In this document: positions 29,412 through 60,404 of the stretch, one piece after another
Position numbering within the stretch: position 1 is the stretch's first letter
How the letters are laid out: every line of letters starts with the position of its first letter
Origin: Podarcis pityusensis
Taxonomy: Eukaryota
NCBI GenBank assembly: GCA_964106645.2
Contig: OZ067051.1
Strand: one strand, 5' to 3'
DNA length: 64,000 nucleotides
Position numbers and translations under genes: made by a program
The notes under the pieces: generated by a model
Seen by the model: the letters and a program-made list of their open reading frames with translations, nothing else
Databases searched by the model: none
Told to the model about the DNA's origin: nothing

Positions 29412-29597
29412 CTAGCCAAGGATGTCCAGGTAGATTGGTGTGGCTTTGCCCAGGGCATGAAGGATCTTGTAGATTTCCTTGATGTTCAGCCGCTGCTGAG
29501 GTTCCCTCTGCCAGCAGCCCAGCATGATGTCGTAAACCTCCTTGGGGCAGACTCGAGGACGCTCCAAGACTCGGCCTTGGGTGATGCACTCGATGAC
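29412..29597 (-). CDS. NTRK3: NTRK3/TrkC terminal coding exon (kinase C-lobe and C-terminal tail)
   Basis: Translates [61 protein letters not shown], the TrkC C-terminus with the PLC-gamma docking YLDILG motif. Acceptor ttgcag|GTC at 29598/29597, TAG at 29412-29414, 186 nt, phase 0. Confidence 0.98.
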
Positions 29598-32700: not shown

Positions 32701-32907
<207 letters not shown>

Positions 32908-57620: not shown

Positions 57621-59328
57621 TACCACCCAATACCCAGAAGAAGTCTCAGGGAGTTTCACAGAATAAAATCAAAATATAAAACCACAAAATACAAGATCAA
57701 AAATAAAAACAACAACCCAATAACTCCGCCCCCCCAAAAAACCCCCACCACATTTTAAAAAAGAACATAGGATGTCAATCAAATCAACCAAAGGCTTGGT
57801 AAAAAAGGAACATTTTCATTGGTGTGGGCAATGATTCATTCCAAAAGTCAGTTCTCATTCATCCAGTTGCTTCAAACTGCGCAATAATAATATCGGCAAT
57901 AGGAGATGTTGAGGACTGGAGCTGGGGCTTACTGCATGCTAAGCATGTGATCAGCCACTGAGCTATGTGGTCCTTCATCCAAGAGATGAAACTCCCAGCA
58001 GCAATTAGAGGAGCTGAGTCAATGTGAGAGAAAGGTGGGCCATATAATAGGGTGACCAGGTGTGCTACGTTACAGAGAGAACACTCCTCTGCTTGAAAGA
58101 GTCCTCTGGGTGAAGGGCTGCTCAGTCCAAAGCCTGGCTTAAAGCTAAAGCATCTTAAGAAAGGAGAGCAGAGGAGGCCTTGAAGATGCCTGTCAACAGT
58201 GAGACAGCGGATGCAACAGGTCCCCTGATGACAGTCTTCTCATTATGCTGATATCTATGGCACTTCTATTTAAATTATAGTAATAGCTTCTAAATTTGCA
58301 TCTATACATAGGAATCGGAACATGCAAATTTTATGCAGATCTTTTGTCCTCTTTTGGGAGGGGGGATAATTCCCCACCCCAAGGCACAGAACGATTGAGC
58401 GGCTCTCATCTCAGAGAAAAGGCAGGTCAGGTTGATACACAGAGGAAGGAAGGAGCAGAAGCAGTGGGGTTGGGGGTTGGGGGAGCTGGATAACCAGGAG
58501 CTGGGGGTCTCGAGAAGGCAGCAGCCCAGCACAAAGAAGGGAGCATTGTAAAAGGATGGGGTTCCAAGGAATTAGGAAGGCGGCGGCAAAGGGGCACAGA
58601 GGGGAGTGGGGGGGGGAAATTGAATAAAATATTGGGGGGAAGGTAAGCCCTGCACTGCATAATTGATCACATGACACACCATTTGAATGGCAATGTTCAT
58701 CAAGGAGGAGGAGGCCTGCCCCCCTCAAATATTTTATGGGGGGCAAAGCCCCCTTGGCCCCTAGGAGTCGGCTCCTGTGGAGGGGAGCCACCAAGATGAG
58801 GAATAGCTTCGAAATATCAGCATCTAGATCACTGGCTGGAGCCCTTTAGTTTGAGTAACGAGACATAGGAGAGGAGATAGAGGCCATATTCATTCACACC
58901 ATACATTTAAAGCACCTAGATTTAACACACTATGATCCCCAGCTTTCTGTGAAATGAGGGATTGATTGTTGGACCACTCTGAGAACTGTAGCTGTAGAAG
59001 GGGAATAGGGGCTCTCCTATCAACTCTCAGCACTCTTAACAAACTACAGCTCCCAGAATTCTTTGGGGGAAGCCATGACTGCTTAACGTGGCATCACAGT
59101 GCTTTAAATGTATATTGTGAATGTTGCTGACATATACCGGTATTTCTTTTTTAATAGGAGCAAATTAGCAGATTGCAGAGGGACCTCTAGACAAGAGATT
59201 GCAGTCTACCCAAGCACCTAATCTACAGCATGGGTGATTTATAGCATGGTTATCCTGCCCAGCCCCAGTGACCAGGTTCTCAGTCAAGCAACTGCCCCCC
59301 CCCCCCACTGGAGTTGAGATCCACTCAC

Positions 59329-59403
59329 TGTTGTAGCTGCCATTGCTGCTAGTCTCTGCTGCTGCCACGTTGTCCTGAAATAGCCCTTCGGATGCGGCAC
59401 TTC
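59329..59403 (-). CDS. NTRK3: NTRK3 alternative 25-aa kinase-insert cassette exon (KI25)
   Basis: 75 nt, phase 0/0, acceptor ctgtcag|GAA, consensus donor ACA|gtgagt. Encodes EVPHPKGYFRTTWQQQRLAAMAATT, matching in length and in the WQQQRLAA core the 25-aa activation-loop insert I recall from rodent TrkC. Correct position upstream of the VGGHTML exon. Confidence 0.9.
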
Positions 59404-59814
59404 CTGACAGCGAATGGTTGGAGACAAAGGGAAAGGAGGGTTGGGGGAAAACAGAGAAGGAAAGCAGGGAGGGAGGACGGTGGGGGTGGGGGATATGTGA
59501 AGGAATGAAGTAGGGGACAAGAAGGGAAAGGGTGTGTCTTTAACTGCATCATACGTCTTTTCACCGGCTGCAACATTCCAACAGCTTAATGTATATTTCA
59601 GGCTTTTCGATAGGTTGTTGCCTATGGTGGTATCGGTTTCATAATTTTTGACCTGGCAATATATTGCGAATCATGGTGTGTGTGTATGTGTATGTGCTAT
59701 GCAAAAATCACAATATGGGAAAAGCCATGAAGCTACTGTTGGAAACAAAATCTGCCCTTTTCCCCTTATAGGGTACACAAGAGCCCTTATAGAGTCCTTT
59801 GTAGGTTCTCCATC

Positions 59815-60404
59815 TGTCGGAGAAAAATAACAGAGCCAACCAGAGAATATTGAGAAGCAAAGCAGCTAGTAAGCCTGATCTTTATTAAAGCTGTTGCAAC
59901 AGGGTGCTCACCCCACACGCAGGAGAAAGGAGGAGGACCCAGAACAAAGGTGTGCCCGCCCTTATATAGACTTTTTAAATTGCCCACCCTCAAACTCTAG
60001 ACCACCCCAATACATCATACATACATACATCACAGGGAACTGTCCAAAACAGAATACTGAGTGTGTTGTTTATCTCCTGTCTGGAAAGTTACCTGATTGC
60101 ATTATCTGGGTTTTGGCCACTCTTTTGTTATTATAACTACTTAATTCCTGAATCCAGGTCACAGGTCACAGGCTCACCCTATTCACACCTTAAATGTGCC
60201 CTTAAGGCAGGATTTGTGAGCACAGAGAGAATGGGGAGGTTTTTTTTTTCATTTCCTCTCTCCTTGCAGAGAAACATTTGGTCAGTTTGGGAGAGTCAAA
60301 ATGGTTTCAGGACTGTTTTCCTATACTGTTTCAGAGACGTATTTATGCACATGTTTGCCTTGTACATTTAATTTATATATTTGAGACATTAAATTCTTAT
60401 AACA
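59815..60404 (-). mobile_element. ERV-like solo LTR, sense to NTRK3
   Basis: TGT...ACA termini. On minus, TATATAAG at about 59961-59968 is followed about 75 nt later by AATAAA (59881-59886), the U3-R-U5 order. Flanks CCATC / CTACC are only a degraded TSD. Confidence 0.62.

Follow-up and report, generated by a model that had tools for sequence, protein, structure and literature searches.

Kinase-insert isoforms of TrkC were reportedly described by Valenzuela 1993, Tsoulfas 1993 and 1996, and Garner and Large 1994, in work covering the rat and the avian kinase insert, and the insert forms of rodent and chicken TrkC are said to show dampened signalling. The exon of the TrkC-14 form is reported to be repeat-derived, with a MIR origin (attributed to Krull 2007), and exons derived from LF-SINE reportedly go back to Bejerano 2006. 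The forms TrkC-14 and TrkC-25, together with TrkC-39, appear by name in the accessible part of PMC3760877.

We analyzed a stretch of 64,000 nucleotides from the lizard Podarcis pityusensis (the window, corresponding to G000:C14:35030001-35094000), which contains an insert exon of this kind. It resembles TrkC-25 and TrkC-39 of the rat and the avian kinase insert in its gene, in its junction past DYYR and in its length of 25 aa, but carries the squamate-specific residues Val2, Tyr8 and Met21. A further difference from TrkC-39 is that the lizard has no detectable 14-aa exon in the 43-kb interval; turtles have a different 38-aa segment. The TrkC-14 insert (PDB 6kzc) enters at the same kinase junction, but its sequence differs and it comes from a separate downstream exon, which was seen here only as an addition in mammals. 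LF-SINE exons, which stem from the exonization of one ancient element in a range of unrelated genes and are conserved throughout amniotes, offer a parallel to the exon family proposed below. Comparison of this family with the LF-SINE region of lizard PCBP2 (one copy compared) nevertheless gave no significant similarity in sequence, and seven of the eight family copies are exactly 75 nt long and keep the host frame, whereas 11 LF-SINE exons introduce an early stop according to the accessible part of PMC9148063. In Alu and MIR exonization, as in the proposed family, splice sites and pyrimidine tract are supplied by the repeat, but those families are of high copy number and their exons mostly lineage-restricted (both points from the accessible part of PMC7786948), whereas the present family is known only as exon-like copies.

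Anatomy of the NTRK3 insert exon

The insert exon spans 75 nt (window positions 59403-59329, minus strand) in phase 0, with the arrangement AG/75 nt/GT. It is preceded by ...ctgtcag, followed by gtgagt, and translated into EVPHPKGYFRTTWQQQRLAAMAATT (25 aa). The features of the locus are as follows, in window coordinates:

59505..59586, minus strand: upstream intronic block, conserved in another species (contigs of X5, X11 and X13) and, by alignment, partly common to several family copies
59404..59530, minus strand: acceptor with a long pyrimidine tract, its final 9 bases common to other family copies
59329..59403, minus strand: 75-nt phase-0 cassette exon of NTRK3, TrkC-25 kinase insert; insert of model P0007 identical, downstream junction present in a contig of another species
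59319..59328, minus strand: donor site and following bases, common to the family
32713..32871, minus strand: next NTRK3 kinase exon (VGGHTM...NTE)
29412..29597, minus strand: last coding exon of NTRK3 (VIECITQG...YLDILG, stop)

The host gene is NTRK3; the remaining two Trk genes, NTRK2 and NTRK1, sit on contigs C11 and C16. The exon ending in DYYR lies 16.7 kb upstream of the insert exon, beyond the window (G000:C14:35106080), and terminates on a codon boundary, while the VGGHTM kinase exon begins downstream at 32871, so that inclusion of the insert exon preserves the frame. The exon is thus located between the DYYR and VGGHTM exons of NTRK3, as in the TrkC-25 class. Its description as an isolated, frame-preserving 75-nt exon was confirmed in anatomy, frame and peptide, and its assignment as the TrkC 25-aa kinase insert directly past the activation-loop YY was borne out by the junction and by homologous inserts. 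A paralogue of the insert in TrkB or TrkA was rejected, as the second copy found in the genome lies in neither NTRK2 nor NTRK1 and the corresponding introns of these genes gave no match.

The splice sites, called strong in the preliminary description, turned out to be weak on a rough custom weight matrix. The acceptor scored 1.8, the lowest of four exons, against 4.1-8.1 in three neighbouring exons, and the donor scored 2.4, second weakest of the four, against 0.2-7.9. At the donor, the match is perfect on the intron side and poor on the exon side (ACA). Weak scores are what a cassette exon would be expected to show. The predicted RNA fold of the exon region was not unusually stable (z +1.6). 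High-copy repeats flank the exon on either side (window 59006-59107 and 59618-60200) and drew most sequencing reads, and retroelement-like long reading frames occur in an upstream NTRK3 intron (G000:C14, ~35.125-35.127 Mb).

Orthologues of the insert in amniotes

In a protein search, RefSeq models from Elgaria and Gekko proved to carry the insert. Eighteen proteins were listed from these two clusters (15 of 52 and 3 of 3 members, respectively); among the 16 of them that span the kinase junction, the 25-aa insert is present in 9 and absent from 7. The insert of P0007, isoform X1 of a Podarcis (wall lizard) RefSeq model, is identical over 25 aa. The insert exon is already annotated and, as originally posed, is an ordinary orthologue: the suggestion that it is hidden from annotation mostly fails on these models, and holds for the X1 models of Rhineura, Candoia and Pseudonaja, which lack the insert.

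Inserts were taken from 120 listed matches and ten further clusters, and 33 were compared, using the first 25 residues of longer inserts and excluding two hedgehog isoforms that were duplicates and an owl model whose sequence diverges past residue 19. They comprise 10 squamate, 11 bird, 5 turtle and 7 mammal sequences, which bears out the prediction of an amniote-wide insert. Identity to the lizard insert, out of 25 residues, is 19-25 in squamates, 13-16 in birds, 15 in turtles and 10-16 in mammals. An alignment with the rat, mouse and chicken inserts had been proposed; the comparison drew on the 33 inserts of annotated amniote models, which aligned and were homologous. The exon accordingly shares with the TrkC-25 class a length of 25 aa, a preserved frame and homology to mammalian and avian inserts, as judged on annotated models, and we have hardly any doubt that it is the lizard orthologue of TrkC-25.

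Residues G7, W13 and Q14 are invariant in all 33 inserts, and E1, K6, R17 and A22 are kept in 32 of them. The expectation of a constrained core, WQQQRLAA, held in part: constraint extends into the N-terminal half, since E1, K6 and G7 are invariant or nearly so, and within the core Q15 is replaced by R in every bird and turtle sequence. The tyrosine noted in the N-terminal half is indeed there, and Tyr8 is confined to squamates (10/10 against 0/23 in the others).

RNA evidence for inclusion

Annotated models exist both with and without the insert. We examined eight sequencing runs, of which four cover the exon (X1, X2, X23 and X4 gave no coverage of it) and splicing was seen in one RNA-type contig. 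None of the runs listed as matches was recorded as RNA. In this 58-nt contig of X11 (depth 3.4), which comes from another species, the 3' end of the exon is joined directly to codons of the next kinase exon; compared by eye, 23 of 28 positions are identical to that exon, and all differences fall at third positions. The remaining covering contigs enter an intron or end at the exon edge: contigs of X5 (of genomic type), X11 and X13 extend into both introns, and that of X3 enters the downstream intron and ends at the 5' edge of the exon. Of the two junctions named in advance as a check, the downstream one was therefore recovered in one contig of another species, and the junction with the upstream exon was not seen in the eight runs; no junction came from P. 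pityusensis itself. Contigs of the covering runs show that another species conserves positions 59319-59427 and 59505-59586.

A family of homologous exons in the same genome

The first search of the lizard's own genome returned a second match, on C17, which is 74% identical and likewise has the structure AG/75 nt/GT. With this copy as the query, copies on C11 and C1 were found. Two sequence patterns gave 5 matches against 0 in the control and 20 against 10, and these 25 loci were filtered with an HMM of the first four copies; four more copies were recovered, with nhmmer E values of 2e-9 to 2e-17 although they were not part of the model. Additional copy searches of the genome yielded nothing new, and locus L185 had no HMM match. 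There are thus at least seven further homologous copies, or at least eight with that of NTRK3, on seven contigs. The seven further copies, given by contig coordinates, are:

C11:26469670-26469744, plus strand: MAST4 copy, phase 0 (gene name from orthologous models)
C1:115884686-115884760, minus strand: copy in an oxysterol-binding-protein gene (OSBPL6-like), phase 0; the gene is presumably OSBPL6
C13:23643994-23644068, plus strand: ATP6V0A1 (V-ATPase a1) copy, phase 0
C20:9230859-9230933, minus strand: CACNA1B copy, phase 1, frame 2, in what we take to be the I-II loop region
C14:28749354-28749428, plus strand: copy in a MEGF-type gene (MEGF11-like), phase 1; the gene is presumably MEGF11
C17:30737519-30737593, plus strand: NRG1 copy, phase 1, in the large intron between the 5' exon and the Ig exon
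C9:2271048-2271127, plus strand: NRG4-like copy, phase 2, past the transmembrane exon; the host is presumably NRG4

Pairwise identity among the seven copies of 75 nt is 38-57/75 (51-76%), and the eighth copy is 80 nt long. Against each other copy, that of NTRK3 scored z 9.5-20.4, a score reached by none of 200 shuffles. The whole exon aligns with the same 75-nt spacing, and we regard it as nearly certain that the copies form a homologous family. They lie at unlinked loci with unrelated flanks, as interspersed repeats do. The homologous stretch (~110-250 nt) has the exon with its splice signals at its centre, and most copies share an upstream block before a long pyrimidine tract. In NTRK3 this block (59505-59586) is likely the 5' part of the element, to judge from the alignment, and is a candidate distant branch point; its z-scores reach 8 but are inflated by low complexity.

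In all seven 75-nt copies a stop interrupts frame 1, and frames 0 and 2 have none. All eight copies lie in sense to their host, with matching acceptor and donor, and are open in the frame required by the host intron phase; this record is partly a matter of ascertainment, as the search seeds contain splice sites and favour intact copies, and for the same reason eight is a lower bound. The NRG4-like copy (L108:5048-5127) carries an insertion of 5 nt, and reading enters it in frame 1. The cytoplasmic tail of mammalian NRG4 starts with similar residues, and it may derive from the element. In the four copies compared, differences between paralogues are spread over all codon positions, so no protein-level constraint common to the paralogues is indicated. 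Neither of the two 25-aa peptides searched had a Pfam family, and the family profile had no PDB match.

A profile of four copies matched 37 proteins at E <=0.001, most of them unspliced read-throughs of genomic contigs and two unrelated. In five proteins of other species the insert is spliced to host exons: four are MAST4 proteins and one is an unnamed OSBPL6-like contig. The spliced MAST4 proteins are named records from alligator, colugo, and orangutan or chimpanzee, plus one with a penguin cluster-mate. Since orthologues or spliced proteins occur in both lineages, the insertions in NTRK3 and MAST4, at least, are older than the mammal-reptile split. Splice evidence from proteins for the copies covers MAST4 and the OSBPL6-like gene; those in NRG1, CACNA1B, ATP6V0A1, the MEGF11-like gene and the NRG4-like gene are known as genomic copies. 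The multi-gene exon family is well supported and apparently unreported. Family-like segments that resemble no lizard copy closely (13-15/25 identities) were also present in eight unnamed contigs (P0245, P0251, P0258, P0260, P0261, P0265, P0266 and P0270), possibly further family members in other species. Retroelement-like long reading frames were observed in the NRG1 intron as well (L012:8872-9153).

Proposed origin of the family and effect of the insert

Seven homologous intronic copies with the same splice sites and host-compatible frames, two of them spliced elsewhere, make TrkC-25 a likely product of the serial exonization of an ancient amniote repeat. An origin of the family from a transposon is, in our judgement, probable. 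The element would have come equipped with a pyrimidine tract, an acceptor, a donor and two frames free of stops, so that a sense insertion into a phase-0 or phase-1 intron could be spliced in and leave the host protein unbroken. Exonized copies would have been retained and the rest would have decayed past recognition.

In TrkC, the weak splice sites would entail partial, regulated inclusion. The insert would come between the YY motif and the substrate-binding segment beyond it, a separation that is predicted to lower the phosphorylation of effectors. By analogy with the rodent and chicken forms, the lizard insert probably dampens signalling; an AlphaFold model from a 35-sequence alignment was uninformative, with pLDDT <50 for the kinase. 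The reading as a whole, namely an optional TrkC exon with likely dampened signalling that stems, like at least seven other copies, from one mobile element predating the mammal-reptile split, seems to us quite likely. More tentatively, TrkC-25 and cassette exons of NRG1, NRG4, MAST4, OSBPL6, CACNA1B, ATP6V0A1 and MEGF11 may all go back to a single, hitherto undescribed element in the ancestor of amniotes, which served as a plug-in exon and brought along splice sites and two frames free of stops; they may form a possibly co-regulated 25-residue switch in several largely neural genes.

Alternative explanations

The element may be an ancient repeat that is already catalogued (LF-SINE, AmnSINE, UCON, Eulor or MER), in which case only its link to TrkC-25 and the other genes, or nothing, would be new. 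We consider this possible, if doubtful. The exon of PCBP2, which we take to be LF-SINE-derived, is intact in the lizard (L161/L162, G000:C2, ~15.876 Mb), and a local alignment with this region showed a few colinear blocks. The alignment was not significant: z was <=1.1 in the sense orientation, and one antisense case of 16 gave 2.3. The eight-copy HMM had no match at the PCBP2 exon at E<10. Serial exonization of LF-SINE is established (19 exons, in the accessible part of PMC9148063) and Repbase holds many unclassified ancient families (accessible part of PMC5753468), which leaves room for a catalogued source. Against it, no paper linked the host genes or these exons in the titles and abstracts covered by our literature search, a scope beyond which supplements, most subscription papers and Repbase/Dfam lie; NTRK3 is absent from the main text of PMC9148063, PMC9004415 and PMC7786948. 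As a side observation, several near-identical sets of KH-domain exons occur in both orientations at G000:C19 23.5-26.0 Mb, suggesting an amplified KH-protein gene cluster.

The insert isoform could also be a tolerated minor product in lizards, conserved for its RNA splicing signals more than for a function of the peptide. The weak splice scores and the single low-depth junction contig are compatible with this idea, as is the run around the RQRL codons, which persists even in copies whose reading frame is a different one. Yet length and frame are retained in 10/10 squamate inserts, and W13, Q14 and G7 are invariant in the 33 amniote sequences although W13 varies among paralogues, which makes this explanation unlikely.

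Quite unlikely, in our view, is exon shuffling, in which a founder exon with flanking intron was passively copied into several genes by DNA-level duplication or transduction, with no transposon involved. It would fit the restriction of the homology to the exon and its splice signals and the finding of only eight copies. It would also fit the negative searches for transposon hallmarks: ARAGORN found no tRNA gene at any of the eight loci, where a head this old may be unrecognisable, and Rfam, applied to 4 of the 8 loci, gave no match at the copies. But the copies are read in frames 0, 2 and 1 and in unrelated domains, so no protein module was moved, and it would be unusual for passive duplication into introns to have happened seven times independently. 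That the other copies are chance or convergent matches to splice-site motifs can practically be dismissed, for although the seeds contained such motifs and one pattern search gave 10 control against 20 real matches, similarity covers the whole exon at constant 75-nt spacing, and the nhmmer E values of the four copies outside the model and z-scores of at least 9.5 contradict it.

Implications of the family

If real, the family would account for the origin of a receptor isoform that has been known since 1993, and would join LF-SINE as a second example of an ancient element that was exonized repeatedly, in this case mostly as coding exons that preserve the frame. Candidate isoforms are predicted for NRG1, for the N-type calcium channel in its I-II loop, for the V-ATPase a1 subunit and for a MEGF receptor. 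The copies would amount to a natural experiment in which the same 75 bases are under selection in different frames and proteins, and it can be asked whether they are co-regulated through a splicing code inherited in common.

Other insertions at the kinase junction

The TrkC-25 insert was found in none of the 97 kinase-bearing amphibian, coelacanth or ray-finned-fish models among the matches listed. For the 14-aa exon, nothing stood out in the lizard's 43-kb interval: the mammalian query scored 24 against 24 on the opposite-strand control, and two other queries came out barely above that control, with no splice sites. A 39-aa form is therefore not expected in the lizard. The 14-aa insert of a condor model (P0149) was set aside as a probable model artefact, since it starts with the donor read-through residues VR.

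The kinase-junction intron of NTRK3 has gained exons several times. In turtle models P0030, P0031, P0182 and P0185 the 25-aa insert is followed by an extra segment of 38 aa that contains an internal repeat, so that the kinase insert totals 63 aa. At this junction, salamander models P0062, P0064, P0191, P0194 and P0197 show a 14-aa insert of their own that does not resemble the mammalian one, and teleost models P0128, P0134, P0125 and P0115 (flatfishes, stickleback and climbing perch) have unrelated inserts of 14-23 aa there. In P0224, an older coelacanth model, a 5-aa insert at this junction starts with EGP, the first residues of the family; this may be an artefact of the model or else point to a greater age.
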